DNA of 48,194 nt from a virus. Its lineage: Duplodnaviria; Caudoviricetes. The position numbers were made by a program, and so were the translations under genes. The stretch lies in the IMG/VR virus record IMGVR_UViG_3300022917_000014, positions 1 through 48,194 of that record. The stretch is one strand, 5' to 3'. Below, piece by piece: positions 3,074-35,411 of this stretch. The notes under the pieces were generated by a model that ran no database searches, was not told the origin of the DNA, and saw only the letters and a list, made by a program, of their open reading frames with translations. Each line of letters opens with the position of its first letter. Position 1 is the stretch's first letter.

Positions 3074-3102
3074 AAAAAAACCGGCACATTGCTGCGCCGG
3101 TT
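3074..3102 (-). terminator. Intrinsic terminator after the major capsid gene
   Basis: AACCGGCGCA-GCAA-TGTGCCGGTT followed by a T-run on the minus strand. Confidence 0.85.
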
Positions 3103-3144
3103 GTGTTTCCGCTTTTATCGGTGGCAAAACTGAAAGCCTGGGTA

Positions 3145-4182
3145 TTATGCGCCCTTGCTGTAGGACAGCACACCGGTCGGGTTGTAGTTCACTGAGCTAA
3201 CAGTAACGGTACAACCTTCAGGGTTTAAGAAGATACCGCCCCTGGTCTTCACTTTCCAGGTATGTACCAGGTGTTCCTGGGCTCCTGCGCTGGTACAGGT
3301 GAGTGCGTAGTAAACATCATACTTCACGCCCGGGATAACGGAACTGGGTGCAGTGTAGCGGGTCTGGTTAACCTTGCCGCCCACTTCCACCGGCGTATCG
3401 CTGTTCCGTACTTTGGTCACGAAAGCAATGGCGCTGGAAGATACCGCAAAGGTGTCCTCTGTCAGCCCTGCAGGTCCAAAATTAAACGGGTCGAAGTACA
3501 TGCGCAACTGTGCAATGCGGGCCGCGTCGCCCTTGCCGTCCAGGTTGCCGGCATTCAATTGGGCGTTGGTCCAGGGCACCCACAAACCACCGTTGTCGAT
3601 GTAGTAGGCGTTACCCAATTTGTTCATCATTGCGTCGTACATCATTTCCGCGATCATAGACACATTATACTGGGCAGCGGGTACTGTAGTAGTGCCTGCA
3701 GCGTAGGTATAAGGTTCTGGTGACACGTTGATGCCGGCGAAAGCCTTCAACTTTACAAGGTTCTGCTGTGCCCACCATTCGTCCAGGGCTTTGATCGCAA
3801 AGGCCAATCCGCTGGCCGCTTCCTCCTCGACCGTGTACGTATTGGTCCGGGTCTTTTCCGCGTCTACGGAAAAGGTGACCTCTTTACACATGTCCAGCGT
3901 GTAGGTCTTGCCGCCGCTTTCAAGCTCGGCACCTACTACGGTACAATCGGTGGTACAGTCCTGCACCGCTACGGCGCAAGGGTTGATAAAGTTTACAATG
4001 ACCTGGTTTTCCTTGTCGCGGTCTTCCAGCATTGAAAAACGGGCCGTGCTGTTTGTCTTCACAGCCACGGCTGCCTGGGCATTCGCTTTGTAGTCCTGCG
4101 CCAATCGGCTATCTGCCCACATGCTTTCCGCCTTAAGCTTGATTGCTAAGAGGGCCGATGCACTGAAATCGCCTGCTGCCAT
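3145..4182 (-). CDS. Major capsid protein
   Basis: 345 aa; follows a scaffold-like gene and is followed by a strong terminator; typical size and position. Confidence 0.75.
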   Translation of the reverse strand: MAAGDFSASALLAIKLKAESMWADSRLAQDYKANAQAAVAVKTNSTARFSMLEDRDKENQVIVNFINPCAVAVQDCTTDCTVVGAELESGGKTYTLDMCKEVTFSVDAEKTRTNTYTVEEEAASGLAFAIKALDEWWAQQNLVKLKAFAGINVSPEPYTYAAGTTTVPAAQYNVSMIAEMMYDAMMNKLGNAYYIDNGGLWVPWTNAQLNAGNLDGKGDAARIAQLRMYFDPFNFGPAGLTEDTFAVSSSAIAFVTKVRNSDTPVEVGGKVNQTRYTAPSSVIPGVKYDVYYALTCTSAGAQEHLVHTWKVKTRGGIFLNPEGCTVTVSSVNYNPTGVLSYSKGA

Positions 4183-4230
4183 GTTAAAAAAATTAATGGG
4201 TTAGTAAAAAAATGGTTAGTAAGTAAGAGC

Positions 4231-5178
4231 CTATTTTGTGCCGGCGGCCTGTTCGGTCTGCCACACATTCATCACTGTTTGCCGGTCTTCCAGCTTGATC
4301 TTGTCGTCATTTACGATTGCTGACAATTGTTCCAGGTTAGTCGGCTTCGTGATGCCTGCAGGATAAACTACCGCTGCTGCACCGCCTGCCGCTGCGCCCT
4401 TCCCTGCATCCGCATTACTTGTGCTGCCGCCTCCGTTGTTTTGCTGAAACTCGAAGTATCCGGCTGCATTCGTTTTTGCCAGATCGTCCAGGGTAACATT
4501 GTTGCCGTGGCTGTCTGTATGCACCTTCCCGTCTTTCATAACCAGGATGGTCTTGCCGTCGGCCTGCGTTTCGTAGTCAAAGTCCTTGAATGTCGCCAGG
4601 TAAGCCTTTTTAAGATTGTCAGCAACCTGTGGATTTTTCGGCAAAATAGGGTTCATTCCTGTGACGGTCTCCCATGCTTTAGTGCCTACAACCGCGAACG
4701 TTTCCGCTTTTTTCTGGCCGGTTTCCAGTTCGGTCACCTTTGCCTGCCATGTGCTATTGGCTTCGGTCAGGGCCTTTTTATGGTCCTTAACAGTCTGCTG
4801 ATAGAACGGGCTTTTACGTATGTCGTCCTCGGTGATTTCCTTCGGCTTTGCTCCTGTTGGTGCCTTCGCTGTGACGATAACGTCGATCAGGTCCAGGCCA
4901 GTGGCATCGCTTTCAATCTCAAACTTTTCTTTGATGGTTTTTTCCAGTTCAGTAAGACTTTCCTTTTTACCTTTTGCATATCCGTCCTGAAAAGTTTGCC
5001 CCTTAGCGGGCGTCTTCAGTGTGGCAATGCGGGCGGTGTCTTTGTCTAAAATGGTTTGTGTAGCTGTCTCCTGGGCATTGTCTTCTGACGAATTTAGGAG
5101 TTCGTCGATCTCCCCGTCTTGCATTTTGTAAACCTTTGCAAGTAAGGCCCGTAGAATTTTTGAAGCGTCGATTTTCAT
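4231..5178 (-). CDS. Capsid scaffolding protein
   Basis: 315 aa, charged helical/coiled-coil with a Gly/Ala linker and short C-terminal domain; immediately upstream of MCP. Confidence 0.65.
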   Translation of the reverse strand: MKIDASKILRALLAKVYKMQDGEIDELLNSSEDNAQETATQTILDKDTARIATLKTPAKGQTFQDGYAKGKKESLTELEKTIKEKFEIESDATGLDLIDVIVTAKAPTGAKPKEITEDDIRKSPFYQQTVKDHKKALTEANSTWQAKVTELETGQKKAETFAVVGTKAWETVTGMNPILPKNPQVADNLKKAYLATFKDFDYETQADGKTILVMKDGKVHTDSHGNNVTLDDLAKTNAAGYFEFQQNNGGGSTSNADAGKGAAAGGAAAVVYPAGITKPTNLEQLSAIVNDDKIKLEDRQTVMNVWQTEQAAGTK

Positions 5179-5209
5179 AACAAATGTAATTAAAAAGATG
5201 AATTGAAAA

Positions 5210-5440
5210 CTATTTTTTGGCGGCGGCCTTCTTTTTAGCCCCGCCTCGTTTCCCCTTCCCTTTGATGGCTTTCGCTTGTAGTGCTTTCAGTTCTGCCACC
5301 TCTGGGGGTTCTTTTATGGTCTTAACATATTCAAAAACACCCCGCCACATAGGGGTGTTTTTGTTCTGGTGCCATAAATCGGCATCGACCTGGCTGGTAA
5401 CCTTTGTGGTTCGGTTGCGGATAACGATAATATGGCCCAT
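5210..5440 (-). CDS. Hypothetical protein with Lys-rich tail
   Basis: 76 aa ORF, tightly packed with neighbours. Confidence 0.65.
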   Translation of the reverse strand: MGHIIVIRNRTTKVTSQVDADLWHQNKNTPMWRGVFEYVKTIKEPPEVAELKALQAKAIKGKGKRGGAKKKAAAKK

Positions 5441-5443
5441 AGG

Positions 5444-6097
5444 TTACTGTTTGGCGGTCTGCAGTTCGCGCACTTCGGCCGGAACTACCACAATTGGTTT
5501 AAGGCCGTCCTGGTTTTTGTTGCCGCCCAATCTGTCCCATGTCATGCGGGTGAAGTGACGGACCACGCCGTCCCTGCCCTTCGCAGTCACGAACCCGGGG
5601 CCGTATTCCTTTTCCAGCTTCGCCTGTTCCTGCGCCTCCGTGTCCAATTCCTGGGCTTTGCCTTCCTCGGTCACTGGTGGCGGGTCCGGTACAAACTTTT
5701 TGTTGTTGCCAGCCTGCTGTAGTGCCATGTCAGTGTTGGCCTTCAGTGTCGCCTGATCTGCCTGCCATTTTTGGAAGGCCGCGAAATCATCGGCATTGAC
5801 TACCAGCCCCGACTGTTGTGTCCCTGCAGGTACATTCCCCTCGCCGGCGTTGTCTGTCTTTGCGGCTGCCTGTGGTGCTGGCGTTACCGGTGTCTTAACT
5901 GCAGCAGGCGCTTTCGTGGCTGTAGCTGCCGGCGTTGCAGCCTTTGCTTGCGGTGCTGGCGCCGTTCCTGTCTTCGCGGCTGCCTGCTGCTTTACAGCGG
6001 CCTGGTCAACCGTTGCGCCACCTTTGGCGGCACCCTCATTGAGTACTGCGGCTTCCAGGTTCTTGTCCTGGGGGGCCACTTGTTTTTGTTCGCTCAT
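5444..6097 (-). CDS. Hypothetical Ala/Pro-rich protein (217 aa)
   Basis: ATG at 6097 follows an A/C-rich leader; the longer ORF-track start runs through a terminator and promoter. Confidence 0.7.
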   Translation of the reverse strand: MSEQKQVAPQDKNLEAAVLNEGAAKGGATVDQAAVKQQAAAKTGTAPAPQAKAATPAATATKAPAAVKTPVTPAPQAAAKTDNAGEGNVPAGTQQSGLVVNADDFAAFQKWQADQATLKANTDMALQQAGNNKKFVPDPPPVTEEGKAQELDTEAQEQAKLEKEYGPGFVTAKGRDGVVRHFTRMTWDRLGGNKNQDGLKPIVVVPAEVRELQTAKQ

Positions 6098-6190
6098 TGT
6101 AAAAAGGTTTGTTTGATGTGTGATTGCAAAAATGGTTCCGACGCGGAAACACAGCCGGTGCAGAACCTCATGCGTTGACAAATATAAAAG

Positions 6191-6220
6191 AAAAAAGCCG
6201 GGACGTACTGCCCCGGCTTT
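6191..6220 (-). terminator. Intrinsic terminator
   Basis: AAAGCCGGGGC-AGTAC-GTCCCGGCTTTTTT on the minus strand. Confidence 0.85.
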
Positions 6221-6246
6221 GCCTACAATCTTTTCATGCGACACGA

Positions 6247-6603
6247 TTACCCGTTGGTCTGATCACCTGTACCGTCGCCACCTTCCTGTGCGTCGGGGTT
6301 CAGATCGTCCACGCTCTGTACGTTACTTTTCAGTTCCGCCAGTGCTGCCTCTACTTCAGGGGTTACGTTTCCTGCATCCCTGACAGCCTGTTCCAGACGG
6401 TCCGTAGATGCTAAAATTTCTCCCTTTGCTTTTTGCAATTGGGTGTTTGTGTCGCGTAGTTCTTGTGCCAGTTCGGCCTGTGTCTTTGCCATTTGATCGA
6501 ATTTTAACGTTAAAAATGAAAAAAGTCTTTGCCACATGTCACTCGGCCCGGGTGTATTGGGTTCAACAAAATGGACCTCGTGCAGTATTTTTAGTGTCAA
6601 CAT
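6247..6603 (-). CDS. Hypothetical coiled-coil protein
   Basis: 118 aa ORF with a heptad-rich C-terminal half. Confidence 0.65.
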   Translation of the reverse strand: MLTLKILHEVHFVEPNTPGPSDMWQRLFSFLTLKFDQMAKTQAELAQELRDTNTQLQKAKGEILASTDRLEQAVRDAGNVTPEVEAALAELKSNVQSVDDLNPDAQEGGDGTGDQTNG

Positions 6604-6641
6604 GTCTAAAGTATTTTAGCTAAGATACAAAACGGCTGCAA

Positions 6642-7529
6642 TTATTGGGCCTCCTTTAAATCGGGTCGAAGTGCCACGGCCACGGCCTTCGGTATGTAGT
6701 TTAGATGGTGCCTGCAGCCATACCCGCCCAGGTCCGTCGCCGGGTTGTAGTTCGGCGGCTTTGCCTCCTTTGGGTCGAACTTCTCTATTTCTTCCGATGT
6801 GAACACCTTACCGTTGCGGGCCTTGCAAAATGGCCTGGTGGTCTTTATAATGCCGCCTTCATAGATGGCATATTTCAGGTCCAGCTTGTCGGCGAATATT
6901 TTGGCCTGGGTCCGGTCTACCTGATTGAAAGTATCGTACACGAAGTTCCGATAATACTTCTGCAGGGCACCGGTCTGGCCCTCACCGCCCTGTATGTAGT
7001 CCTTTAGGCCGGTCTTTGTAGCCTGGTAGCCCTTCTGGTTTACTATGCTTTTGAACACGCTGTCTTTGATCGTGGACTTTGTGGTCTCATCCCGTAGCAG
7101 GGTATTCAGATACCCATTTTCGACCAGGCCGCCCCGCTTCGTGATCCCTAACCAGTCGCCTATCGTGCTTTTCGTCTCGTCCAGTATCTTGCCCAGTTCG
7201 GCCTTGCTGGTGAATACCCCGAAGTAACGACCATTGAAGTCCATCACCTGGTTGACGCCCTTTACGATTGTGTTAACCACCTCTATGCCGGACTGTTCCA
7301 CGTACTGCGTGTATATGCGGTCGAAGGTTGCCAGGCGCCTGCGGTTTGACAACGTGTTTTTGATCACGCCGTCCGCATCCTTGTCCAGCTTATCTACAAA
7401 GTCGGTGATGATGGTTTCCAGCAGGGCCCCCTGCGCGCGCCCGACCTGGGTTTCCATTTCTGCAATGATTGCGTCAATCAACTTCGTGCGGCTCCCGGCC
7501 AGCTTTAATATGTCTGCTGCAGTTGGCAT
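6642..7529 (-). CDS. Minor head / MuF (SPP1 gp7)-like morphogenesis protein
   Basis: C-terminal TRPFC...RNGKVF...GGYGCRH motif; near the portal gene. Confidence 0.7.
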   Translation of the reverse strand: MPTAADILKLAGSRTKLIDAIIAEMETQVGRAQGALLETIITDFVDKLDKDADGVIKNTLSNRRRLATFDRIYTQYVEQSGIEVVNTIVKGVNQVMDFNGRYFGVFTSKAELGKILDETKSTIGDWLGITKRGGLVENGYLNTLLRDETTKSTIKDSVFKSIVNQKGYQATKTGLKDYIQGGEGQTGALQKYYRNFVYDTFNQVDRTQAKIFADKLDLKYAIYEGGIIKTTRPFCKARNGKVFTSEEIEKFDPKEAKPPNYNPATDLGGYGCRHHLNYIPKAVAVALRPDLKEAQ

Positions 7530-7843
7530 AGTGCTGTGTGTATTGCTGTGGTCGTCTCCTTTGCCCATGCCTCGAAATCACGGTCCAGGAAAACGCGCTG
7601 CAGCTTTTCATTGAAGTAAACGTACTTAAGATCACGGCCGCCATTGTTGCGATCCCATACAAGGTCCATTATCACCTGGTGCCAGGTCTTTTTGTTGGGG
7701 TTCGGGTCCTTTATCCAGGCTATAATCCCGTTTTTGATTATCCGCATATCGGCTTTACTGCTGTCGTGGCAGAATATCCTGCGGTCCCGTTTGGCCCTTT
7801 CAATGGCCTTATGTTTAGCTTGTTGGGGTGTCTCCTTTGCCAT
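7505..7843 (-). CDS. Hypothetical protein (112 aa)
   Basis: ATG at 7843 overlaps the end of the portal gene. Confidence 0.6.
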   Translation of the reverse strand: MAKETPQQAKHKAIERAKRDRRIFCHDSSKADMRIIKNGIIAWIKDPNPNKKTWHQVIMDLVWDRNNGGRDLKYVYFNEKLQRVFLDRDFEAWAKETTTAIHTALCQLQQTY

Positions 7844-9824: not shown

Positions 9825-9851
9825 GTGGAAAAATATTTGATCAAATGTAAC

Positions 9852-9878
9852 AAAAAAGCCCCGACGCATGGCCGGGGC
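9852..9878 (-). terminator. Intrinsic terminator
   Basis: GCCCCGGC-CATGC-GTCGGGGC-TTTTTT on the minus strand. Confidence 0.85.
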
Positions 9879-9897
9879 ATATCCTGGTTTCAATGTC

Positions 9898-10152
9898 TTA
9901 CACGCTCGTAATGGCGGCCCACGCGCTGCCATTGTAGAAATTGAGCTTTTTCGTTGTGCTGTTGTAAATAATCAGCCCTTCCGGTACTCCGGTCAGCGCA
10001 TCCCGCACGGTGGTCGTGTACCAGGGGAAAAGCGACTTTTGTGCTGCTGCGATGCTGGTAAGCGTTCCCGCTGCCAGGTTGTCCAAAATATCAGTCTTTT
10101 CAAAGACCTTTTTGATTTCCGCCAGGTTCTTCGGCGATACTGTTGTGGCCAT
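9898..10152 (-). CDS. Small protein with a Bacteroidota fibre-type motif (possible virion decoration)
   Basis: PWYTTTVRDAL...GLIIYNSTTKKLNFYNGSAW resembles the recurrent 'P.mTtaqR.ai..pa.Gl.iYnt......y.g..W' motif. Confidence 0.55.
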   Translation of the reverse strand: MATTVSPKNLAEIKKVFEKTDILDNLAAGTLTSIAAAQKSLFPWYTTTVRDALTGVPEGLIIYNSTTKKLNFYNGSAWAAITSV

Positions 10153-10178
10153 AGCTGTAAAATTTTAAGTGAATGTAC

Positions 10179-10203
10179 AAAAAAGCCGGCATTGCTGCCG
10201 GCC
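10179..10203 (-). terminator. Intrinsic terminator
   Basis: GCCGGCA-GCAA-TGCCGGC-TTTTTT on the minus strand. Confidence 0.85.
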
Positions 10204-10271: not shown

Positions 10272-11861
10272 CTACTGTAAGGGCTTCCAGTACGCGCCCC
10301 CTGATGCCTGCGCGCGCGACTTAACGGACGTTTTACTGACCGTTCCGCCTGCACCATCCGGGAATACTGACAGGTTTACCATATCGCCAGACCATAGCCT
10401 GGTGATGATGGCCGCCAATGGTTCGGTATTTGTCTGGCTGCGGGCTTCCACTTCACCATCTGCAGGGTAGTACAGCACTGTTTCGCCGATTTGTGGCACC
10501 GGTGCAGTGTATGGTAAAACGGTCACCTTTATGCTGTCCTTTGCCTTCGCGCCTTTGTTGTCGGTCACTTCCACCGAAAAATCATAGATACCGGGCACTA
10601 ATCCCGATGCGGTCATTTCGCCGATCAGGTTGTCGTCCGTGGATATAGTGGCAGTGTTGGGTCCGCTCACCTGCGCCCACTTCACGCCCGCGATACTTCC
10701 ATCGGGGTCGCTTGCTGCCGCTTTCAAAATAACCTTTTCAGGCGCATCGGTCAGGGTAACATCAGCACCAGCATTGACCACTGGCACCTGGTTACTATCG
10801 GCCTTGTAAGTCACGATTGAGGTAGCCGTATCAGTCTTTCCATTTACGTCCATCACCGTGATGGATATTGCCCAGGAATCCCCGTCTTTGGGGTTGTTAA
10901 ACTTAAACGTTCGCTGTGCATACTTGACCCCGCCCGGTGTGTCATAGGGCTGCACCAGGTTCCAGTTATTGCCGTTTTGAGGTGTCACACCCCATAAAAC
11001 TGCATCCCACGGGTACGTGTCGCCGGACTTCTTTACCCCGACGCTTTGGGTGGCATCGAACTGTACTGTTGTTTCACTGGTAACAATATCACCAGGCATC
11101 AGTACGGCCTTAAGTGTTTGCACCACGGGTTTGGAAAAGGCATATCTGCTGCCCTTTTTAGCCGCCAGCATGAACTCGTATATATTCATCGGCGCCCCCC
11201 ATATACTTTCCCTGTATGAAGGGTTGTAAAACGACTGCCACATGCCATGACCGCCCGCGTAGATCGTTATGCGGCTATTGCCTGGTGCCACCTGGTTGAC
11301 CTTAGCGTCCAATGTTTTCAGGTTTGCTGTATAGCTGCCGTCAATGTTGCCACTGAACCCCCACAGGCGTATCATTTGGGCCGCCATTGCCGCAGCATTG
11401 CCCAGGTTGCCCGTACTGGCCGGGCTCATTGGCACACCTGCAGCATACAAGTCCATCACCCCGGTGGTCGTCAGCCCTTCCATTGTGGTCGCTCCGCCCG
11501 CAGACAGACCGGTCACATAGATCATATTTTTGTCAATCTGCGGATATGTCGGCAGCACCTCGGTGCGAACCGCATAGGCTGAATTGACCGCCGATGGCGA
11601 CCATCCACCGTTTAACAAGGCCAGCACGAAAAACCGCACAGGCTTTTTTGTCTCCGGATCGGTAAACACGAATTTGTTGCCGGCTTTGATAAAGGGAATG
11701 GGCCCGTTTTCTTCCAGCCATGCCTCGTTGGCCCCTACGCCGTGGTTCATAACCAGCAGGGCGCAGGGGTCGGTGTTCGTTGCCAGGTCATCCGGCGCGT
11801 GCAGGATGCCGTAAAGGGTGGCACCAGTTGCGGCCACCTTCCATTGCTTTCTTGTAAACAT
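10272..11861 (-). CDS. Alpha/beta-hydrolase (esterase) fused to PKD/Ig-like domains and a small C-terminal phage domain
   Basis: HGVG oxyanion segment, GLSAGG nucleophile elbow, candidate Asp (GNIDG) and His (GGHG); PVVNAGAD...SDPDG...WAQVSGP...VTDNKGA PKD/REJ-type repeat. Confidence 0.8.
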   Translation of the reverse strand: MFTRKQWKVAATGATLYGILHAPDDLATNTDPCALLVMNHGVGANEAWLEENGPIPFIKAGNKFVFTDPETKKPVRFFVLALLNGGWSPSAVNSAYAVRTEVLPTYPQIDKNMIYVTGLSAGGATTMEGLTTTGVMDLYAAGVPMSPASTGNLGNAAAMAAQMIRLWGFSGNIDGSYTANLKTLDAKVNQVAPGNSRITIYAGGHGMWQSFYNPSYRESIWGAPMNIYEFMLAAKKGSRYAFSKPVVQTLKAVLMPGDIVTSETTVQFDATQSVGVKKSGDTYPWDAVLWGVTPQNGNNWNLVQPYDTPGGVKYAQRTFKFNNPKDGDSWAISITVMDVNGKTDTATSIVTYKADSNQVPVVNAGADVTLTDAPEKVILKAAASDPDGSIAGVKWAQVSGPNTATISTDDNLIGEMTASGLVPGIYDFSVEVTDNKGAKAKDSIKVTVLPYTAPVPQIGETVLYYPADGEVEARSQTNTEPLAAIITRLWSGDMVNLSVFPDGAGGTVSKTSVKSRAQASGGAYWKPLQ

Positions 11862-13471: not shown

Positions 13472-14040
13472 TCCTCAATGATTTGTTGGGTAGTCGTTTC
13501 CCTGGTCTGGAAGATAGTGCGGCGTATTATCGTGGTGCTGCTGGTCTTCTCGCCGTTGTTGTAGTTATTCACCTGCAGGGCTGCGGTCGCGGTTGCGCCC
13601 GCCATTGGATCACCAGGCCCCAGGAACTTCATGCGCTTTTCAATGCAGCGTTCCACGCCCTTCAGGAACTCGTGTTCCCCGGCCTCGGTCTTCACCATCT
13701 TACCGCCTTTTTTCTGCTGCTTTGTTGATCGGTCCCAGGCTTCCCAGTACTCTCGTTCCAGCCGGTTCAGCTTTTGAATTTCCACGGCGATGTAGTCCTG
13801 TATCAGTGCGCTTTTTTGGGCGATGCAGTCGGCGATTGCCTTGTCGATTACCTTGCCGACATACGTACGGTGGAACTTATGGCCCTCAATCTTCGTAGCC
13901 TCGTCTGCCACTTCCTGCTGACTGTACCCCCGCATGTACAGCGTTACAATCGTATTGGACCACCTCGCTTTTCTCAGTTTCACGGGGGAATTTGGGGCTT
14001 TGTCCATGACTTCAGCCCGGTTTTTTCCTTTTCTTTTCAT
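13468..14040 (-). CDS. terS: Terminase small subunit (HTH)
   Basis: N-terminal HTH (LYMRGYSQQEVA), LNRLEREYWEAW and CIEKRMKFLG segments; overlaps the terL start. Start may instead be 14007. Confidence 0.65.
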   Translation of the reverse strand: MKRKGKNRAEVMDKAPNSPVKLRKARWSNTIVTLYMRGYSQQEVADEATKIEGHKFHRTYVGKVIDKAIADCIAQKSALIQDYIAVEIQKLNRLEREYWEAWDRSTKQQKKGGKMVKTEAGEHEFLKGVERCIEKRMKFLGPGDPMAGATATAALQVNNYNNGEKTSSTTIIRRTIFQTRETTTQQIIEE

Positions 14041-14148
14041 CTTTCTTTCAGTTTTGCCAATGAAAAACACCAGTCAGTCAGTTGCCACGCTGCTGCTGGT
14101 GTTACAAATTACGCTGTTTCCGTGCAAAAATTAAGAGAAAGCGTGCAA

Positions 14149-19800: not shown

Positions 19801-19848
19801 TATTTCATTATTTTTTCAAATATACTACCTTTTTATTTCCTAAAAAAG

Positions 19849-19878
19849 AAAAAAGCCAACGTAAAAACGTCGGCTTTT
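19849..19878. terminator. Intrinsic (bidirectional-type) terminator
   Basis: AAAAGCCAACGT-AAAA-ACGTCGGCTTTT flanked by A/T runs. Confidence 0.8.
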
Positions 19879-19920
19879 GATTGGTAACCCCTTACCAACC
19901 CGTTAAATTCTTAGCCGAAA

Positions 19921-20123: not shown

Positions 20124-20600
20124 TTAAAAAATGTGAGTAATTAAAGTCTTTTCCACCTCGGTGAGCTGTCGCCACATCTGTGATCCCTTCCAGGGGAATG
20201 GCTTTATCGGTGTCACCTGGTCATATTCATGAACGAATAAAAAACGGTCATAGTCCACGTACGCCTGCGGCTCATCCTCTTTGATCATGGGCCTGCAGTC
20301 AATGAGGCGACCCACGCCGATTGCATGGGCCAGTGGCAGGTTGTGCTGCTTTTTGGCCAGCCCTTGAATGCCCAGGGCCGCCAGTACACGGTTGTACTGG
20401 GTCATGCTGCTAAACTTTGAAAGTTCCAGCAGGTTGTAAGGGGTAATGCTGGCGCAAATAAGCACGTAACCCCTGTAGTTCGTGTTCCAGGTTCTCGTCT
20501 CAAACCGTTTACCGTTCAGCATCATTGATGCGTAAGGCTGGCGCCACGATAGGGCGCGTATCTCGTTTTCTGTCTTGACAATATCGTCGATGATGTTCAT
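20124..20600 (-). CDS. ASCH-domain protein
   Basis: ALSWRQPYA...GKRFETRTW.T.YRG.VLICAS matches the ASCH signature. Confidence 0.85.
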   Translation of the reverse strand: MNIIDDIVKTENEIRALSWRQPYASMMLNGKRFETRTWNTNYRGYVLICASITPYNLLELSKFSSMTQYNRVLAALGIQGLAKKQHNLPLAHAIGVGRLIDCRPMIKEDEPQAYVDYDRFLFVHEYDQVTPIKPFPWKGSQMWRQLTEVEKTLITHIF

Positions 20601-20602
20601 GG

Positions 20603-21070
20603 TTATAAAAAGATTTTTTTGTGACGTTCCAGGGCTTCCTGTACGTTGATCTTGTTTGCTCTAATAAGGAAGGCCAGCACGTCAGCAGACGCAGCCGCCC
20701 CTATCCTGTAAATACGCATATTGTCGGGATAAAAGACCGGGTAACTTTCCCGTTCTATGGCCCTGGCGTTCTGGAACTCCTTATCAGTAAATAAATCTGG
20801 CTTTGGCCATTGGTTACCGATCATCGCGTCCAATTCAGGCTTAGTCCATGCCGGCACCATGTCTTCGCTAATATCGTCGACGGTAGCAAATGGCATCATG
20901 CCCACCTGCCATACTAATTTAGGGCTTCCGTCGGCGTTGTTTGGTTCCGCCAGGCTTTCCTCCCTGCTGTACCAGAACAGGGCCGGCTGACCCATCATGC
21001 CCAGGGTCAGCAAGTCCTCGCATTGGGATGGTAGTGCTACCAACTTCTGTATTTTGTCTTGCATTTTCAA
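20603..21070 (-). CDS. Hypothetical protein
   Basis: 155 aa ORF. Confidence 0.6.
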   Translation of the reverse strand: MKMQDKIQKLVALPSQCEDLLTLGMMGQPALFWYSREESLAEPNNADGSPKLVWQVGMMPFATVDDISEDMVPAWTKPELDAMIGNQWPKPDLFTDKEFQNARAIERESYPVFYPDNMRIYRIGAAASADVLAFLIRANKINVQEALERHKKIFL

Positions 21071-25705: not shown

Positions 25706-25775
25706 AGTTCTATGATTTATTGTTGATGAATAAGAAAAGCAAATATAATAAATAGGAAAAGAAAAAGAAATAAAA

Positions 25776-26279
25776 CTATACTATTTTGGAAATAAAGGCC
25801 GCTAATATCTTCGCCACCTGCCTGGGTGTTAGCCCGCGCGCCTGCATATCCACCTGACCGTGGGAGGCAAAAAACACCAACGAACCCGGCGCTATGCCAC
25901 TGTCAAAAGCAATGGTTTCACGTATGGATACTGCCATGCCCTTGATCTGTTGATCTGCAGTAAACCCTTGTACGTGACTATCCAGGCCCTTTAATGGCAG
26001 CTTACCGTCCGGCTGATTGATGGCACGGTCGAAGTTAAAAAGCGGCGCCTGTGCCCCTGCAGGGCCTTTGTAGCGGCCTCTTTTCTTCGCGGGTCGTTTG
26101 TTGACCTGTTTGTATGGCTTTTTTGTGAATTTAACCGCCCCAATCACATGTCGGCGCTGTCGAATAGCGTCGGGGTTCCGGCACATCTGTGTGGCTATGG
26201 CTGTGTCTTTCCAGCCAGCAGCAAATAAGTTTCGCAGGTTATTGTCCTGTTCCTGCGTCCAGGGCTTTGGCTTTGCCAT
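25776..26279 (-). CDS. Putative HTH DNA-binding protein
   Basis: WTQEQD..L..L...G.....IA..M.R...AI..R Myb/GcrA-like N-terminus. Confidence 0.55.
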   Translation of the reverse strand: MAKPKPWTQEQDNNLRNLFAAGWKDTAIATQMCRNPDAIRQRRHVIGAVKFTKKPYKQVNKRPAKKRGRYKGPAGAQAPLFNFDRAINQPDGKLPLKGLDSHVQGFTADQQIKGMAVSIRETIAFDSGIAPGSLVFFASHGQVDMQARGLTPRQVAKILAAFISKIV

Positions 26280-28204: not shown

Positions 28205-28214
28205 TATGGGAAAA

Positions 28215-28259: not shown

Positions 28260-28336
28260 CTTAACTCGTTACCGTATGGGTATGGTGCAAATATAGTTCC
28301 CGGCCTGGAATTATACGCGCACGGATCAAAATAACA

Positions 28337-29371: not shown

Positions 29372-29399
29372 GGTAAAAATGCTTTGAGTTGGTGAAGAT

Positions 29400-29429
29400 A
29401 AAAAAACACGGCGGCTTTCCCCGCCGTGT
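29400..29429 (-). terminator. Intrinsic terminator
   Basis: ACACGGCGG-GGAAAG-CCGCCGTGT-TTTTTT. Confidence 0.8.
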
Positions 29430-29525
29430 ATGGGCCCAATTGTACACCGTTGCCAATAGCCCACTGCGTCAGCATGTAATGGCCACCGGCGCTGACGTGA
29501 TGTACAATGTCTTAAAATAAGTTTG

Positions 29526-29556
29526 AAAAAATGGGGGTGGTAAGCACTGCACCCCC
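29526..29556 (-). terminator. Intrinsic terminator after recT
   Basis: GGGGGTG...CACCCCC-ATTTTTT. Confidence 0.7.
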
Positions 29557-29578
29557 TGTGGTTGGCTTCTCATGTGTC

Positions 29579-30439
29579 CTATTTGGCTGCAGCGGCTCCG
29601 CCCTTCTTTGCGCCTCCCTTACCCTTGCCTGCACCGCCATTAATAGCGTCCTCTGTGGCCTGGGTAGCGGCTGCGGCTCTGTCCTCGGCGGTTTCCTCGT
29701 TGTCTTCGTATGTCACGTCCAGGGTATCAGCATCATTGACGATGGCCTGGTCTACTTTCAGGGCTGTTTGAAGCTCTACGGACAGTATGCCCCACTTTGA
29801 CAGCAGTAACTTAACCATGGTCTTTTTAGCCATGTCGTCGAAGTTGTTGCGCCACTGTCCGTCCGGGTGTTCATAGGACTTGCTGTACTTTTTGGCGTGG
29901 TTGGTCACTTTCTCCTTTGACCAGTACATAGTCTTTTCAAAGCCGTTGATGAGCCGGAAAAAGGAACAGTACCCGACGATCTTGCCGGCACCTTCCACGT
30001 TGAAATCCGCGTCCAGTTCCTCGGTTAAGGCATTCCAGCCCTTAAACTGATTTTCGTACACTTCCACCACGTTCAGGCGGCTGTACTGGGCAGTCCTCAA
30101 ACCCAGTTGAATAAAGCCCTTGTACCCCATCTGGAATTGGGCACGGCCGCTATAGGGCACGATCCAGGCAAACCCCAAATTTTGGTTAATGGGCAGGTCC
30201 AGGGTCGCAGCGGTGGCCGCAGCGTTGAATATACTCATCGGGTCGGCCTTCATTAACTTGTCGTTGCCGTTGGCCACCTGCAGGATTGACGATATGAAAC
30301 CGGCGGCCTTCTTACCCAGTATTTCCTGGAACTTCTGTTTTACCGTGTCGCTGTTCATAAGCGACTTAAGCGTGGGCGGCTGCTTTGCCACCTGACCAGT
30401 GACTACGGCCTGCGCCGACTGTTGTTGTTGCTCGTCCAT
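29579..30439 (-). CDS. recT: RecT-family single-strand annealing protein
   Basis: LDLPINQNLGFAWIVPY..AQFQMGYKGFIQL..R and W...FDDMAKKT motifs; paired with YqaJ. Confidence 0.92.
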   Translation of the reverse strand: MDEQQQQSAQAVVTGQVAKQPPTLKSLMNSDTVKQKFQEILGKKAAGFISSILQVANGNDKLMKADPMSIFNAAATAATLDLPINQNLGFAWIVPYSGRAQFQMGYKGFIQLGLRTAQYSRLNVVEVYENQFKGWNALTEELDADFNVEGAGKIVGYCSFFRLINGFEKTMYWSKEKVTNHAKKYSKSYEHPDGQWRNNFDDMAKKTMVKLLLSKWGILSVELQTALKVDQAIVNDADTLDVTYEDNEETAEDRAAAATQATEDAINGGAGKGKGGAKKGGAAAAK

Positions 30440-30471
30440 AATGGGCGTATTGTGTTGGTGAATAAACTGGG

Positions 30472-30726
30472 TTAAGCCTGATCTGCCATTGCATTCATGG
30501 TAGCGGCAGCACTCTTTTCTGCAGTCAGCCGGTCCATAAAGAACTTGTTAATCAGGTCCGGCAGTTCTGGAACGGTCACGTAACCGTAGTTAAGAGCCCG
30601 GCGAATTGTTGGCCCGCTGTACTCAATCACTTTCCGCATTTCCAGCACGTCCCCGCGCCTCATAAGCCGCTGCCATGTCTGGTGAAGTTCTGCACTGATC
30701 GTGCATGGATACTCTGTTTTAGCCAT
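30472..30726 (-). CDS. Small putative HTH regulator
   Basis: 84 aa; GD..EM....YSGPTIRRALN HTH-like segment. Confidence 0.45.
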   Translation of the reverse strand: MAKTEYPCTISAELHQTWQRLMRRGDVLEMRKVIEYSGPTIRRALNYGYVTVPELPDLINKFFMDRLTAEKSAAATMNAMADQA

Positions 30727-30800
30727 TGTGTAAGATATTTGAAAGCGAAAGTAAAGAAAAGAGAAAAGAAAACAAAATAATAAAGTAACTGGAAGGGAAT

Positions 30801-30831
30801 AAAAAAGCCTGAACCGGTTAAGGTCCAGGCT
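30801..30831 (-). terminator. Intrinsic terminator
   Basis: AGCCTGGACC-TTAACC-GGTTCAGGCT-TTTTT. Confidence 0.8.
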
Positions 30832-30882
30832 GCCAGCTATGCCAATGTAAACGCAGATACCTGTACCAAATGTAAGTACTTT

Positions 30883-31392
30883 TTAACGAAAACCAAGTGT
30901 TTCCAGGCCCCCCCGGGTAACATTGTCAAAGCCTGCCAGGGCTACCTGCGCGTTGTCCATTTGCCCCTTAAACCGCTGGTAATCTTCCTGTAGTGCCTCC
31001 ACTCGGCGCGACCTATCCAGCCGTAGCTCTTTTTGCACCTGGGCAAACACTTCGTTTTGATCACCGACGTGTAACTGGCGAATGGCCGTTAACACTTCGC
31101 CGGTAACTTCCTGCGGCGACTTCTGTATCGCGCAGCAGTTCTGCACATACATCTGTGCCTCATTCCTTCCGGCTGCCAGACCCTCCTGGTAGGCTTTTTC
31201 CTGGGCCTCTTTGAACATCAGGGCCAACTTGTCGGGGAACAGGCCATTTTCGACCACGTATACCTCGTCTCCAAGATTGTGGATAGTGTAAATTTTACCG
31301 GCTGGAATAGTTACCCGCATGGGATCGGCGATGTTTCGCAACCGTGGGTTGCTGGTGCCCTTCTTAGTGGCGGCTTTTTTGTTGTTTGCCAT
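30883..31392 (-). CDS. Hypothetical protein
   Basis: MANNKK..., 169 aa. Confidence 0.6.
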   Translation of the reverse strand: MANNKKAATKKGTSNPRLRNIADPMRVTIPAGKIYTIHNLGDEVYVVENGLFPDKLALMFKEAQEKAYQEGLAAGRNEAQMYVQNCCAIQKSPQEVTGEVLTAIRQLHVGDQNEVFAQVQKELRLDRSRRVEALQEDYQRFKGQMDNAQVALAGFDNVTRGGLETLGFR

Positions 31393-31423
31393 AGTATGAA
31401 AAACCGGGATACGCCCGGCACGT

Positions 31424-31666
31424 TTAAATGCGGTAGGAGACATTAAAAACCTTGTGGTAGGTCCGGTTAATGCTGCAAAATATATCACAGTTATTAGTCC
31501 GGCGGTTGTATGGAAGTAATGGCCGTACCCGGTTTTCTACAAACTCGTTCACCTCCTGTTTGAATTTCCAGGCCGGTAAAGACCGCATGTACTCAATCTC
31601 AGCGCGCAGCATGTACACCACTTCCTCTCGGTCTCGCTTGCGCTCCCTGGTGGCCTTATTCTTCAT
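31424..31666 (-). CDS. Hypothetical protein
   Basis: MKNKAT..., 80 aa. Confidence 0.5.
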   Translation of the reverse strand: MKNKATRERKRDREEVVYMLRAEIEYMRSLPAWKFKQEVNEFVENRVRPLLPYNRRTNNCDIFCSINRTYHKVFNVSYRI

Positions 31667-32042
31667 TGTACCGTGTGGGTATGTTGTCGATAAAGGTGTG
31701 TACATCGCCCTGGGTGTGCTTACCGCCATACAGTGCCATTTCTGTCACGATCTCATGAATTAGGGCCTTGCTGTCCGGTAGGGGTAGCTTGTTATAAATC
31801 TCGTCGAAAGCCTTAGCCTTCACATCAGCAATGTAAAAACGGCGCATGATCACCGGTTCCGGGTCATCATTGGGGAGGTCGACCAGGTGCCGCACCCTTT
31901 CCGCCACCACCCCCTGCGCCATATCCACATAGTCGGTATCTGTCATCTGGCGGGCCTCCAAGTGTTTATACAGGTCCAGCCAGCTAAAAATGTTAAAGTA
32001 AACCCCTAACTCGAAAAGGGTGGTGTTTGAAGGTATATACAT
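31656..32042 (-). CDS. Hypothetical protein
   Basis: 128 aa ORF. Confidence 0.6.
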   Translation of the reverse strand: MYIPSNTTLFELGVYFNIFSWLDLYKHLEARQMTDTDYVDMAQGVVAERVRHLVDLPNDDPEPVIMRRFYIADVKAKAFDEIYNKLPLPDSKALIHEIVTEMALYGGKHTQGDVHTFIDNIPTRYNEE

Positions 32043-32078
32043 GATATTAGTGCAGGGAAAAGCCCCTGCAGGGCCCTT

Positions 32079-32474
32079 TTACTGTTCCTCAAATACTGTG
32101 TCTTCTATATCATCCCCACCGGCACCAAGCTGAAGGGCCTGCACCTGAGCCAGAAACGCCTCTGTTTCTTCTTTGATGTATGCAGGTAGCCAGGCAGTGC
32201 GCAGGTTATCCATATACGGGCTGCTGGCCACACTTCTGTACACGGTATTGTTGATCTCGAACTGGAAAACCCAATAAGGGCCCTTACTGTCTTTAGCGGC
32301 TGTATCCTGACCCTCGGCTTTTACCATGTCAAATGTTAAGTAGGGCGTTTTGGCAGTATCGGCCAGTATCCGGTTGGTTCGTATGAAAGATGATATTTTG
32401 GCCAAATCAGTGTCCAGCCTTTTACCTGCACGCTCGTTGATGTAATCCTGCAGGCTGTCAATGGTGATGTTCAT
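32079..32474 (-). CDS. Hypothetical protein
   Basis: 131 aa ORF. Confidence 0.6.
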   Translation of the reverse strand: MNITIDSLQDYINERAGKRLDTDLAKISSFIRTNRILADTAKTPYLTFDMVKAEGQDTAAKDSKGPYWVFQFEINNTVYRSVASSPYMDNLRTAWLPAYIKEETEAFLAQVQALQLGAGGDDIEDTVFEEQ

Positions 32475-32505
32475 GGTAGTAATGCCCAGTACCGCCGGGC
32501 GCGGT

Positions 32506-32727
32506 TTATGCGTTATTTAAAACAGACTGAAGCCATTCAACGGCATCATTGATTGGCTTTTTTATATGCTCCGTATTTGCATCGGAAAGGGTAGCTAAAA
32601 TTACATTGCAATCATCTGTAGGCAGATTGCTGGTCACTGTGCAAATTTTAGCATAAACTTTATGTGGCTCAACTGATTGCAGTTTGGCAAGGCAATACAA
32701 TAATGCCTTTTTTTCCAATGGGCTCAT
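32506..32727 (-). CDS. Hypothetical protein
   Basis: 73 aa, AT-rich ORF. Confidence 0.55.
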   Translation of the reverse strand: MSPLEKKALLYCLAKLQSVEPHKVYAKICTVTSNLPTDDCNVILATLSDANTEHIKKPINDAVEWLQSVLNNA

Positions 32728-32733
32728 TATGTT

Positions 32734-33171
32734 CTATTTAACATTGAAAAATACGCAAGTGGTGAAGTCTTTGGGAACCACGATGGTTATCTGTCTGGTG
32801 GCATACGGGTTGGTGGCGTCGATCACGTCCACGGTATAAGTACCCGGCACGATCTGCACACTACCGAACCCGCTGGCCCCGCACGCGGGCGCGCCCGCGC
32901 TATATGCAATACGGCCGTATTCTACGCCGTTGACCTTCGCGGTGATGACTTTGGTGGCAACTACCGCGTTCGTGGAAAATAAACGAACTGTGGCCTTACT
33001 GGCGGGCTCCGGGGCCCGGTTCTCAATTGTTGATTTACTGCAGGACGCCAGCAGCGCCAGGGCCAGTACAAGGTGCAGCCCTTTCTTTTTAGCTGGCAGG
33101 AAAACGTGGGTAATAATGAACAACGCCAGCATGATGCCGGCAGCGGTGAGGTTCAAAAGCAATGATTTCAT
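32734..33171 (-). CDS. Putative lipoprotein
   Basis: KKK-hydrophobic-LLASC-SKS lipobox preceded by an extra hydrophobic helix; beta-rich C-terminal domain. Confidence 0.65.
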   Translation of the reverse strand: MKSLLLNLTAAGIMLALFIITHVFLPAKKKGLHLVLALALLASCSKSTIENRAPEPASKATVRLFSTNAVVATKVITAKVNGVEYGRIAYSAGAPACGASGFGSVQIVPGTYTVDVIDATNPYATRQITIVVPKDFTTCVFFNVK

Positions 33172-33244
33172 GATGGTATATTTTACCCAAATGTAATAAA
33201 AAAGAAACAAAAAGAGAAAATAAAAGGAAATAAAAAGGAAATAT

Positions 33245-34543
33245 TTAGGACATATTTTTAAGAAACTTGTCTACCAGGTCAATACGTTTCCCTATCCACT
33301 CCATTACCGGAACGGCCATACTGTTTCCAATTAACTGATAACGAGAGGTATCACTGCATCCGGGAATATTGGTATAGCCATCAGGAAACCCTTGCAGGCG
33401 TTCGCATTCCAATGGCGTTAACCTGCGCACTGCAGGCACCAGAAAAATAGTGGATGTTTTTGTCAAAGACGGGGAAGGGTCGCCGGGTTGCGGATTTGAT
33501 CGGTTGTGAAAGCTGGTTATCTGGTTATATGGGTACGCAATAACATGTGAGTTCTTTGAGGCGTCTGCCCGCAAAGTGTTCTTTACATCTTGTTTTTTCC
33601 AATTTTCATTTAGAAGGCTGGCCGGTTCGTATAGTACTGCCTGCCCGTCGTTTCCGTTAGTGTCAAGTGTGTAAGCAATACCAGCCTCATTAATTCCTGA
33701 CCCACCTGCCCCATTGTTGGCCGTTCTTATTGCCATAGGAACTACATGCCCACTCATAGCACCGTCAGACCCAGGGAAACCGCCCCCCTTTGTCCTTGCG
33801 TCCAGTGTACCCACAATTACGTGTCCTGCTGCTGCGTCGTCTGCTCCTGGACTACGGCCTTTAGAGCGCGTGTTAAGTGCTCCGGCAATTTCTTCCCCCG
33901 CTTTTCTGCCCGCTTCAAAATTCCCTGGCATGCTGTTGGGCTCAAACAATACCGCTGCAGGTGGTCGCCAGTCACTTCCAAAATATCCGACAACGAAGAT
34001 GCGACGGCGTCGCTGTGGAACTCCGAAATATTGAGCGTCCAGCACCCTGTAGGCGCAACAATACCCGCATTCCCGAAACGCTGCAAGGATGGCTGCAAAA
34101 TCCGACGTTTCTGTAATATCTTCTGCGTATGTATGTCCAACTCCTGCCAGATTTGGACCGTCTGCCGCATTTGAGAAAGAACTAAGGGCACCGGGGACGT
34201 TTTCCCAAACAAACCAGCGGGGTCTCTTTGTAACCAGTATTCTACAATATTCAAGGGCAAGGTTGCCACGAATATCGGAAAGCCCCCCCCGTAATCCTGC
34301 GACGCTGAAAGATTGGCACGGGGTTCCTCCGACCAAAATGTCAATTGTACATTTTTGGAATTGCTCATTTTCGTGCAGTTTAAGCATATCCCCCAGGTTG
34401 GGTACATGCGGATAGTGATACTTTAATAGTTTGCAGGGGAAGGGTTCAATTTCTGAGAAAAAAGCAGGCTTCCATCCCAATGAATGCCAGGCCAGCGTTG
34501 CCGCCGATCCACCGGTACAAACGTCTCCATAAATCATACTCAT
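33245..34543 (-). CDS. C5-cytosine DNA methyltransferase
   Basis: GGTPCQ (IV), WENVPG (VI), QRRRRIF (VIII), RRLTPLECERLQGFP (IX) and GNSMAV (X). Confidence 0.93.
   Translation of the reverse strand: MSMIYGDVCTGGSAATLAWHSLGWKPAFFSEIEPFPCKLLKYHYPHVPNLGDMLKLHENEQFQKCTIDILVGGTPCQSFSVAGLRGGLSDIRGNLALEYCRILVTKRPRWFVWENVPGALSSFSNAADGPNLAGVGHTYAEDITETSDFAAILAAFRECGYCCAYRVLDAQYFGVPQRRRRIFVVGYFGSDWRPPAAVLFEPNSMPGNFEAGRKAGEEIAGALNTRSKGRSPGADDAAAGHVIVGTLDARTKGGGFPGSDGAMSGHVVPMAIRTANNGAGGSGINEAGIAYTLDTNGNDGQAVLYEPASLLNENWKKQDVKNTLRADASKNSHVIAYPYNQITSFHNRSNPQPGDPSPSLTKTSTIFLVPAVRRLTPLECERLQGFPDGYTNIPGCSDTSRYQLIGNSMAVPVMEWIGKRIDLVDKFLKNMS
33817..34368 (-). CDS. Nested +1-frame ORF, putative methyltransferase second (beta-like) subunit
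   Basis: 183 aa open frame wholly inside the MTase gene, ending SLSDILE...RYCLSPTACQGILKRAEKRGKKLP..L..AL. Confidence 0.6.
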   Translation of the reverse strand: MSNSKNVQLTFWSEEPRANLSASQDYGGGFPIFVATLPLNIVEYWLQRDPAGLFGKTSPVPLVLSQMRQTVQIWQELDIHTQKILQKRRILQPSLQRFGNAGIVAPTGCWTLNISEFHSDAVASSLSDILEVTGDHLQRYCLSPTACQGILKRAEKRGKKLPEHLTRALKAVVQEQTTQQQDT

Positions 34544-34866
34544 AACTCAGGATGTTCAATGTTGAAACCTAATACCGTGGTAGTCATTTCGTGCGGCGAT
34601 AATTTGTTCACTTCCCGCAGTTCGGCAATCAGGGTCAGCACACCCTCTACGGTCAGGTTGTTAATGAGGTTCCACTGAATACCAGCAGCCCACAGGTTGC
34701 GGCCGGTAACCTTCTGTAGTTTTTCAAATACCAGACGCTCATAATCGGGCAGTTGCTCCGTAATGGCGGCAATTTTCTGTTGTTGTTCGGTTTGCATAGT
34801 CTGAAGTTTTTGAGCTTGCCAGGCATTAAAGCGCGCAATGGCACGCATGGCGGTTGTTTTATACAT
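34540..34866 (-). CDS. Hypothetical protein
   Basis: 108 aa; ATGA coupling to the MTase. Confidence 0.6.
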   Translation of the reverse strand: MYKTTAMRAIARFNAWQAQKLQTMQTEQQQKIAAITEQLPDYERLVFEKLQKVTGRNLWAAGIQWNLINNLTVEGVLTLIAELREVNKLSPHEMTTTVLGFNIEHPEL

Positions 34867-34942
34867 GGGTTGGGTTTAGAGTTTAAAAAGGGCCGGGGCA
34901 TCACCCCCGGCCAGCCCGCAGTACTTCGCGGGAAACTACGGG

Positions 34943-35233
34943 CTAAAAGACTTTCGACCCGCCTATTTTGATACCTACCAGTTTAAGCCAGCCCAGTACG
35001 TACTCGGCTTCCTCAGCTTGTGTTTTGGCTTTCGGCAAATGGCCGCGCCATATCATATCCATGTAAGGGCCGTAAACATCGACGAAAATTTCAAAGTGTA
35101 CACCGCCTTTGATGTGTACCATGAAAGTGGGCTCTGTACTGTTCGGGCCGCTGTTGTCGATTATGTGGATAGTTCCACAACGAATGGGGCCGATCTTTTT
35201 AAGTAGGTCGTAAAGCTCTCTTTTCTTACTCAT
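34943..35233 (-). CDS. Hypothetical protein (first early gene)
   Basis: ATG at 35233 downstream of the promoter box at 35264. Confidence 0.6.
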   Translation of the reverse strand: MSKKRELYDLLKKIGPIRCGTIHIIDNSGPNSTEPTFMVHIKGGVHFEIFVDVYGPYMDMIWRGHLPKAKTQAEEAEYVLGWLKLVGIKIGGSKVF

Positions 35234-35329
35234 TTTGCGAAGTTTTTGTGTGATTTGATACGTCAAATGTACACACTTTTGAAATAAAAAGGAAAAGAAA
35301 AGGAAACTATTTTATAAATAAGTGGAAAT

Positions 35330-35362
35330 AAAAAGGGCCGGGAGTATGTCAGCCCCCGACCC
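35330..35362 (-). terminator. Intrinsic terminator ending the late/lysis transcript
   Basis: GGGTCGGGGG...CTCCCGGCCC-TTTT. Confidence 0.7.
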
Positions 35363-35411
35363 GTACCATGAAAAACATCAACAATTAAAGTCAAAGCGTG
35401 TGTAATATACG

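Follow-up and report, generated by a model that had tools for sequence, protein, structure and literature searches.

Candidate trans-acting antisense RNAs aimed at late-gene starts in a circular, one-strand phage genome

The CI RNA of phage P4 is phage-encoded and acts in trans on a same-strand message via short complementary segments that partly cover the ribosome-binding region. The c4 antisense RNA of P1 and P7 also acts in trans on a same-strand phage message, with short complementary segments partly covering the ribosome-binding region, in the account excerpted from PMC5320573. As given in part of bioRxiv 10.1101/2022.04.08.487710, SviR of the Vibrio PLE satellites has two seed regions and a conserved locus, and lowers late phage gene translation without Hfq or ProQ. 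The portion of PMC7366714 on GibS of Bacteroides describes an RNA with its own start site, an intrinsic terminator and an unstructured 5' seed that pairs across start codons, in a phylum without Hfq/ProQ. Cis-antisense phage RNAs (lambda OOP and aQ, P22 sar, BTP1 STnc6030 and PAK_P4as15) damp phage genes, including tailspike and endolysin, in the section of PMC12197685 that covers them, and candidate phage RNAs are listed in a part of PMC10690425 without pairing of the kind described here. Here, we describe a 48,194-nucleotide (nt) stretch of viral DNA (IMG/VR record IMGVR_UViG_3300022917_000014; the window, or W). Four stretches of it, each directly 5' of an intrinsic terminator, likely yield trans-acting antisense small RNAs (sRNAs) that would block translation initiation of the phage's own late genes. 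Judging from sequence comparison, we give this reading a probability of about 0.72.

The window is a circular phage genome of 48.06 kb with a 132-nt terminal repeat. Approximately 7% of it is intergenic, and all its real genes, as well as the guides and targets discussed below, are on the minus strand. The host is probably a member of the Bacteroidota, since a capsid relative with 41% identity sits in a Chitinophagaceae contig. Of the boxes matching the strict Bacteroidota promoter motif (TAnnTTTG, the consensus in an excerpt of PMC7366714), 11 of 14 on the coding strand touched intergenic DNA, versus 1 of 11 on the opposite strand. The comparison set comprised 23 related sequences (18 of at least 30 kb and 5 shorter), labeled G or L with a number. 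A start region was defined as -45 to +25 around a start, which gives 65 such regions in W, and targets were ranked by ungapped pairing score, with RNAduplex energies given besides.

Antisense matches of the pre-terminator segments

An earlier note, made from the letters of this stretch alone, had proposed that four minus-strand segments (3092, 19892, 30835 and 35364) directly precede intrinsic terminators and pair with distant leaders and starts. As seen, a hairpin and a U-run lie directly 3' of each segment, and all the pairings it listed (15/15, 19/21, 19/20, 16 base pairs [bp] with one bulge, 14/15 and a short one at 30835) are present. The placing of targets in leaders or at starts holds for these named pairings but not for the strongest match of 3092, at 5300-5283, which is approximately 140 nt inside gene 5210-5440.

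Next, the best matches to the 65 start regions were compared with those of 2000 dinucleotide shuffles. This gave p values of 0.0010, 0.0025 and 0.0045 for 3092, 35364 and 19892, and of 0.0005 to 0.002 for their second-best targets, while 30835 did not beat its shuffles (p = 0.21); the earlier expectation of matches beyond chance was thus borne out for three of the four. Since these are 3 of the 10 pre-terminator segments called automatically in W, the three survive a tenfold correction. A genome-wide test with 100 shuffles resulted in p values of 0.01, 0.01, 0.05 and 0.37 for 3092, 35364, 19892 and 30835, respectively.

The same comparison was extended to 24 sequences. Among 148 pre-terminator segments, 18 reached p <= 0.05 in antisense orientation versus 10 in the same-strand (direct-repeat) control (about 7 expected), and 9 versus 3 reached p <= 0.013 (about 2 expected). 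Scores of at least 15 were observed for 8 of 137 segments against their own start regions and for 15 of 2341 against foreign start regions. Seen from the targets, the best genome-wide antisense match of a start region preceded a terminator in 50 of 1237 cases, compared with 14 of 1237 in the same-strand control. Overall, these family-wide controls support the prediction of trans-acting, terminator-ended antisense RNAs aimed at distant late-gene starts.

The four predicted RNAs and their targets in related genomes

The earlier note had suggested processed 3' untranslated region (3'-UTR) RNAs or sRNAs. The trans-acting antisense idea is supported for 30835 and 3092, and the 30835 unit (sRNA-1) looks more like a stand-alone sRNA than a processed 3'-UTR, given the Bacteroidota-type promoter box in front of it. 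Its guide, 30846-30835, pairs with 40299-40288 at the putative tail-tube start over 12 bp with one G-U; the unit is 9.4 kb downstream of this target, with at least two terminators in between. The 84-amino-acid (84-aa) gene behind sRNA-1 was found in ten sequences, nine of which have the same layout upstream of it, namely, a promoter box, 26 to 93 nt and a terminator. The short contig L127 carries the same guide and no tail gene. Eight phages hold both the sRNA-1 unit and the tail-tube gene (W, G001 to G006 and G212), and in this order the tail-tube start ranked 1, 2, 1, 1, 2, 1, 1 and 1 among 48 to 79 start regions; G006 and G212 were obtained after the sRNA-1 hypothesis had been written down. 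G211, which has the locus but no tail-tube gene, is outside this ranking, and G213, where the tail-tube start was 1st of 63, was not counted, having no terminator and an AT-rich site.

The guides of these eight phages belong to three unrelated sequence types, and the best pairings of two of the types reach 14 to 17 bp. Those of W and G001 to G003 are anti-AUG, and those of G004 and G212 are directed against a leader element (see sRNA-3 below). The G004 guide forms 17 perfect pairs with the capsid leader (rank 1) and 12 with the tail leader. The G212 guide forms 15 pairs with the tail leader, ranks the capsid leader second and allows a co-linear two-site duplex on the capsid leader and AUG of -29 kcal/mol. 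The third type, in G005 and G006, is also two-site. Guide and target changed together: the pair at AUG position -2 is G-C in W, A-U in G002, U-A in G005 and C-G in G006, and the AUG register has 3 to 5 of 5 pairs in cognate combinations versus 0 to 2 of 5 across types (3 for the G006 guide on G005). It is very probable that the sRNA-1 pairing is real and selected.

The alignment-based model of the 84-aa protein (predicted local distance difference test [pLDDT], 90.5) has many XRE/Cro-type structural matches with Z of 4 to 6.7, which may reflect merely a common arrangement; the single-sequence model was poor (pLDDT, 56), and Foldseek gave no match to the protein model at E <= 0.001. With a predicted Cro/XRE-like gene behind sRNA-1, transcriptional control may exist as well. 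The earlier remark that the phage has no recognizable repressor thus stands for the CI and integrase families, to which none of the 65 proteins matched, but is put in question by this gene. We also observed that the sRNA-1 and tail-tube transcripts (30858-30870 and 40322-40334) are predicted to have identical first bases downstream of their promoter boxes, which suggests a common promoter control. In G211, the 93-nt unit before the 84-aa homologue corresponds, in reverse complement, to an open frame of 33 codons, and its anti-AUG end predicts a start in the missing part of that genome. The tail-gene matches in G004 (L033) and G212 (L102) are interrupted by stops beyond residue ~205, as would fit a C-terminal extension that is split or frameshifted.

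In the capsid 3'-UTR (sRNA-2), W, G001, G002, L002 and L003 have an identical 17-nt module 1 and G003 differs by one extra T, while the four-fold sites of the capsid gene are 34 to 48% identical to W. The small-terminase, spanin-like and chaperone starts rank 1 to 4 for module 1 in W and G001; in G002, the spanin-like start ranks first and the chaperone start third. The small-terminase gene immediately precedes the large terminase gene, and its site is kept in G001 and, in bulged form with a compensatory C-G to U-A change, in G211. The spanin-like site is kept in G001 and G002, and the chaperone site has 15 bp in G001 and 9 to 11 bp in G002 and L003. Weaker module 1 sites occur at the equivalent of 5283..5300 in three of four relatives. 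For module 2, the start region of the 272-658 homologue is the top-ranked target in G001, G002 and L003 and the fourth-ranked in G003; the site moves between coding and leader positions. In W, the 272-658 leader is matched by sRNA-4 instead and module 2 matches 6163-6143, a switch that we interpret as a possible rewiring. About half of this 19/21 match is the terminator's own stem arm and loop, and it lies 46 to 66 nt before the next long open reading frame (ORF). More distant relatives have different capsid 3'-UTRs, mostly without a significant match; in G220, there is a 16-nt perfect match. Guide and target changed together less fully than for sRNA-1. Real and selected pairing is nevertheless as probable for sRNA-2 as for sRNA-1. 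A possible leaderless ORF of 25 codons (6094-6171, minus strand) was noticed here. It starts 7 nt after a promoter box (6186-6179), has codons 4 to 10 covered by the 19/21 site and ends in a stop codon that overlaps the ATG of gene 5444-6097.

The two core targets of sRNA-3, 4207-4193 in the capsid leader and 40322-40308 in the tail-tube leader, are an identical 15-mer. In eight of the nine sequences scanned, this element precedes the capsid and tail-tube starts by 21 to 25 nt; it is targeted from other loci in G004 and G212. The tail-tube copy is downstream of that gene's own promoter box (TATATTTG, 40338-40331) and therefore lies within the transcript. By windowed energy, sRNA-3 in W ranks its own targets 8 and 2. 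Real and selected pairing seems probable for sRNA-3, with less assurance than for sRNA-1 or sRNA-2. The leader element may itself be a translation enhancer, and the capsid leader holds an additional partial copy of it.

For sRNA-4, behind the endolysin gene, we only slightly favor real and selected pairing, and the trans-acting role suggested for 19892 and 35364 has statistical support only. The post-lysin segment of G213 (oriented ~23002), in the same position as sRNA-4, has 14- to 19-bp matches to five leaders, including that of the tail chaperone. A promoter-flanked pre-terminator segment of G217 (L114, ~200-265) has 17-nt matches to three leaders and 13- to 18-bp matches to eight leaders of early and middle genes, and may be a repressor RNA for a whole gene class or an inverted shared motif. 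As regards conservation and covariation in relatives, which the earlier note had proposed as a check, the 30835 and 3092 units hold up, whereas the 19892 orthologues are weak and 35364 has no homologue in G001 or G002.

Table 1. Predicted RNAs, their elements and putative targets in the window
Feature	Position	Strand	Details
-7 promoter box of sRNA-1, TACATTTG, Bacteroidota type	30867..30874	-	consensus TAnnTTTG (excerpt of PMC7366714); similar box at the same place in relatives
Predicted sRNA-1, ~67 nt	30800..30866	-	guide 30846-30835; terminator hairpin 30831-30806; covaries with target in relatives
sRNA-1 target, putative tail-tube start-codon region	40288..40299	-	complementarity to guide
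Conserved 84-aa gene behind sRNA-1	30472..30726	-	alignment; predicted Cro/XRE-like helix-turn-helix
Predicted sRNA-2 / major-capsid 3'-UTR	3072..3144	-	module 1 3137-3120; module 2 ~3119-3103; terminator hairpin 3102-3079
Module 1 target, putative small terminase leader (-19 to -5)	14045..14059	-	15/15 with 3136-3122
Module 1 target, spanin-like start region (gene 35959-36696)	36689..36705	-	16 bp, one bulge, with 3137-3122
Module 1 target, putative tail-assembly chaperone first codons	254..267	-	14 bp; gene crosses circular origin into 47812-48194
Strongest module 1 complement, within coding region of gene 5210-5440	5283..5300	-	18 bp, one G-U, -31.2 kcal/mol
Complement of module 2 and terminator arm, leader of gene 5444-6097	6143..6163	-	19/21 with 3112-3092
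Predicted sRNA-3	19845..19920	-	guide 19912-19888, partly in own hairpin; terminator 19878-19851
sRNA-3 target, conserved major capsid leader element	4187..4211	-	core 4207-4193; 14/15, one G-U, with 19906-19892
sRNA-3 second target, same element in putative tail-tube leader	40307..40323	-	40322-40308; 14/15, one G-U
Predicted sRNA-4 behind endolysin gene	35328..35400	-	guide 35397-35365; terminator 35362-35335
sRNA-4 target, whole leader of hydrophobic 128-aa tail-module gene 272-658	660..679	-	19/20, one G-U, with 35397-35378
sRNA-4 second candidate target, start of gene 20124-20600	20583..20603	-	complementarity
Major capsid gene	3145-4182	-	Atlas neighbors; position after scaffold-like gene
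Putative tail-tube gene	39441-40295	-	position; leader element in common with capsid; Atlas structure neighbors; no family match

The labels tail tube, small terminase, spanin (from its position in the lysis module) and chaperone derive from position and weak structural neighbors, not from family matches. Family searches with the 65 proteins identified terminase, tape-measure, RecE/RecT, Dda helicase, methylase and amidase. The capsid protein gave 197 matches, PDB sequence searches with capsid and tail alignments gave none, and no named phage matched the first 24 kb of W at the DNA level, or its capsid or tail protein. A terminase query matched no viral locus, and the 201 genomes around its single bacterial match yielded that match only; in the bacterial contig G008, two candidate repressor/integrase ORFs had no Pfam match. 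Elsewhere in W, a 529-aa gene between terminase and portal (10272-11861, minus strand) has a PHB-depolymerase-like esterase domain and Ig-like repeats, below cutoffs. Pyrimidine-rich minus-strand tracts of one family precede early promoters (25741-25794, 30748-30801, 33201-33254 and 35267-35330); they are inverted relative to the purine tract 14021-14055 and are likely promoter-upstream or protein-binding elements. Structured intergenic regions at 28262-28336 and 29372-29578 (minus strand) precede replication and RecE genes; the former matches 23869, within a coding region, with a score of 16 (p = 0.02), and the latter contains three hairpins and two terminators.

Proposed role and rival explanations

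In Flavobacterium, initiation depends on low structure and on A at -3, -6, -12 and -13 rather than on Shine-Dalgarno pairing, according to the relevant part of PMC6847099. The target sites cover -29 to -2 or the AUG, where Bacteroidota initiation needs an open A-rich region, so that pairing would be expected to repress. The predicted RNAs would pair in trans with the start regions of the phage's own late mRNAs and likely hinder ribosome loading. With all genes on the same strand and host-type promoter boxes in front of them, early transcription of late genes would be possible. sRNA-1 from the early region and sRNA-3 from the middle region would then hold back the two most abundant virion proteins until the capsid and tail-tube mRNAs outnumber them, which would set a threshold. 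sRNA-2, made with the capsid message, would keep the low-copy small terminase, chaperone and spanin proportionately down. This timing and balancing logic is the most tentative step of the proposal. A broader version, which we consider tentative and would not expect to hold in full, is that a modular, rewireable antisense RNA set runs much of the late program in place of a late sigma factor or repressor. A fixed early locus would silence the tail-tube gene, and often the capsid gene, despite outright sequence replacement; two modules in the capsid 3'-UTR would serve as guides to low-copy virion, packaging and lysis genes, and lost pairings would be taken over by guides newly arisen behind other genes.

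Several observations weigh against translation-blocking sRNAs as proposed here. The shuffle result for 30835 is not significant, 130 of the 148 pre-terminator segments have no significant match, and strong duplexes show no G-U bias (13 G-U versus 12 A-C mismatches in 57 duplexes). For sRNA-1, the relatives are not independent, the eight genomes amounting to about three trials (the sequence types), and nine more distant sequences of at least 30 kb have no recognizable locus. By free energy, the tail-tube start ranks 5th, 3rd, 1st, 3rd, 4th and 1st in W, G001, G002, G004, G005 and G006; whole-guide RNAduplex energies are biased toward extended GC-rich duplexes and separate targets less clearly than the ungapped score does. 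For sRNA-2, the small-terminase site of G211 needs two bulges and ranks 16th of 71, the chaperone site is absent in G003, and the 19/21 match is absent in relatives, where another gene precedes the homologue. Module 2 has no site at the 272-658 start in W (29th of 64) or L002 (8th of 18). Half of the sRNA-3 guide of W is folded into its own hairpin, and its orthologues pair weakly, with the capsid leader 12th of 65 in G001 and 25th of 70 in G211. No sRNA-4 homologue was found behind the lysin genes of G001 and G002, and the same-strand control score of 35364 is as high as the antisense score (16.2 versus 16.3).

The alternative that survives best, although we regard it as unlikely, is that the RNAs are real and pair but act otherwise, by activation, by triggering or preventing decay, or with sRNA-2 pairing within one long transcript or being sponged by 5300-5283. 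The best sRNA-2 duplex indeed involves coding sequence 2.1 kb upstream in the same operon, and the capsid/tail-tube element, kept at -21 to -25, could be an enhancer that needs a partner. Moreover, the tail-tube AUG and the 6163-6143 site are predicted to be merely 38% and 47% unpaired. However, most sites cover the AUG or the adenines at -3 to -13, and five of the seven are predicted to be 64 to 83% unpaired, which makes occlusion the likeliest effect. In addition, sRNA-1 has its own promoter box and terminator and is separated from its target by the distance and terminators given above.

Less probable again, the matches could be inverted copies of DNA motifs, such as an operator or late-promoter element, that bind a protein or drive opposite-strand transcription. 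One 15-mer does occur in direct orientation before each of the two main virion genes, with a single inverted copy at 19892, a Cro-like gene adjoins sRNA-1, and the strong duplexes lack a G-U bias. Nevertheless, the four guides have no sequence in common, the duplexes tolerate bulges, and several sites span the AUG and track its changing context in relatives. In addition, the leader element lies inside the tail-tube transcript, and strict boxes in intergenic DNA are nearly confined to the coding strand (11/14 versus 1/11). The weakest explanation, chance and composition, whereby A-rich leaders and common first codons (Met-Ala-Glu-Leu-Lys) easily find pairing partners in U-rich pre-terminator DNA, draws on the 10/148 and 16.2 of the same-strand control and on several sRNA-2 matches that are common codons inside genes, and is plausible for the 19/21 match and a serious contender, somewhat short of even, for sRNA-4, but is improbable overall and largely refuted for sRNA-1 and sRNA-2, given far fewer strong matches in composition-keeping shuffles and real foreign start regions and the unexpected recurrence of the same gene at rank 1 or 2 for three unrelated guide sequences at one locus.

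Little is settled about how one-strand phages with host-type promoters delay and balance their virion proteins, above all in Bacteroidota, where Shine-Dalgarno pairing, Hfq and ProQ are lacking. If translation-blocking sRNAs are confirmed, self-targeting trans-acting sRNAs would be a timing and stoichiometry device of lytic growth, beyond lysogeny or phage-host conflict. The sRNA-1 series offers natural cognate and noncognate guide-leader pairs for direct reporter tests that do not need the phage, and knockdown tools for Bacteroidota could readily be modeled on short leader-blocking guides.

Comparison with known systems

Three candidate assignments were tried and rejected. Membership in the C4 family is contradicted by the predicted folds, which differ from three stems with a'/b' loops, and there was no Rfam covariance match; at E <= 1, Rfam gave no match in W save one chance match, and none in six related loci. 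Cis-encoded antisense RNA is ruled out, with guides and targets on the same strand and kilobases apart. Invertible DNA is rejected, as homologues are co-directional throughout the 23 related sequences and no recombinase family matched among the 65 proteins of W. Among RNA-guided systems (CRISPR, TIGR and TnpB-like), no repeat array, shared scaffold or effector family match was found in W, where most proteins have no family, so that a partner protein of a new kind may yet be present. Searches of the open literature yielded no description of phage sRNAs encoded in trans and directed against capsid or tail-tube leaders of the same phage; the 38 sRNAs left undescribed in PMC12197685 and the candidate RNAs listed with PMC10690425 may include such elements.

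As in trans-encoded sRNAs, the four segments are encoded away from their targets and have short imperfect complementarity to translation-initiation regions. Motif matches give terminators for all four and a promoter box for sRNA-1; the other three follow a stop codon, and their own promoters are uncertain. Conserved pairing with compensatory change was observed for sRNA-1 and sRNA-2. Cis-antisense phage RNAs are transcribed at the locus of their target, from its other strand, whereas the guides of W are on the same strand, 3 to 37 kb away, and pair over 11 to 20 nt. c4 folds into three stems, is processed by RNase P and belongs to an immunity region, with a single operon as its target; the guides of W, in contrast, are largely single stranded, terminator ended, four in number and aimed at virion, packaging and lysis genes. 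GibS is a host metabolic regulator, not phage-encoded, with no known sequence relation to the RNAs of W. SviR resembles the RNAs proposed here as a base-pairing sRNA against a late phage gene, but it is, in the part of its report cited above, a satellite RNA against the helper phage ICP1, whereas the phage of W would regulate its own late genes. The earlier note did not recognize a described system here; the arrangement as such was indeed not found in the literature or in Rfam, but its predicted way of working is that of c4, SviR and GibS.

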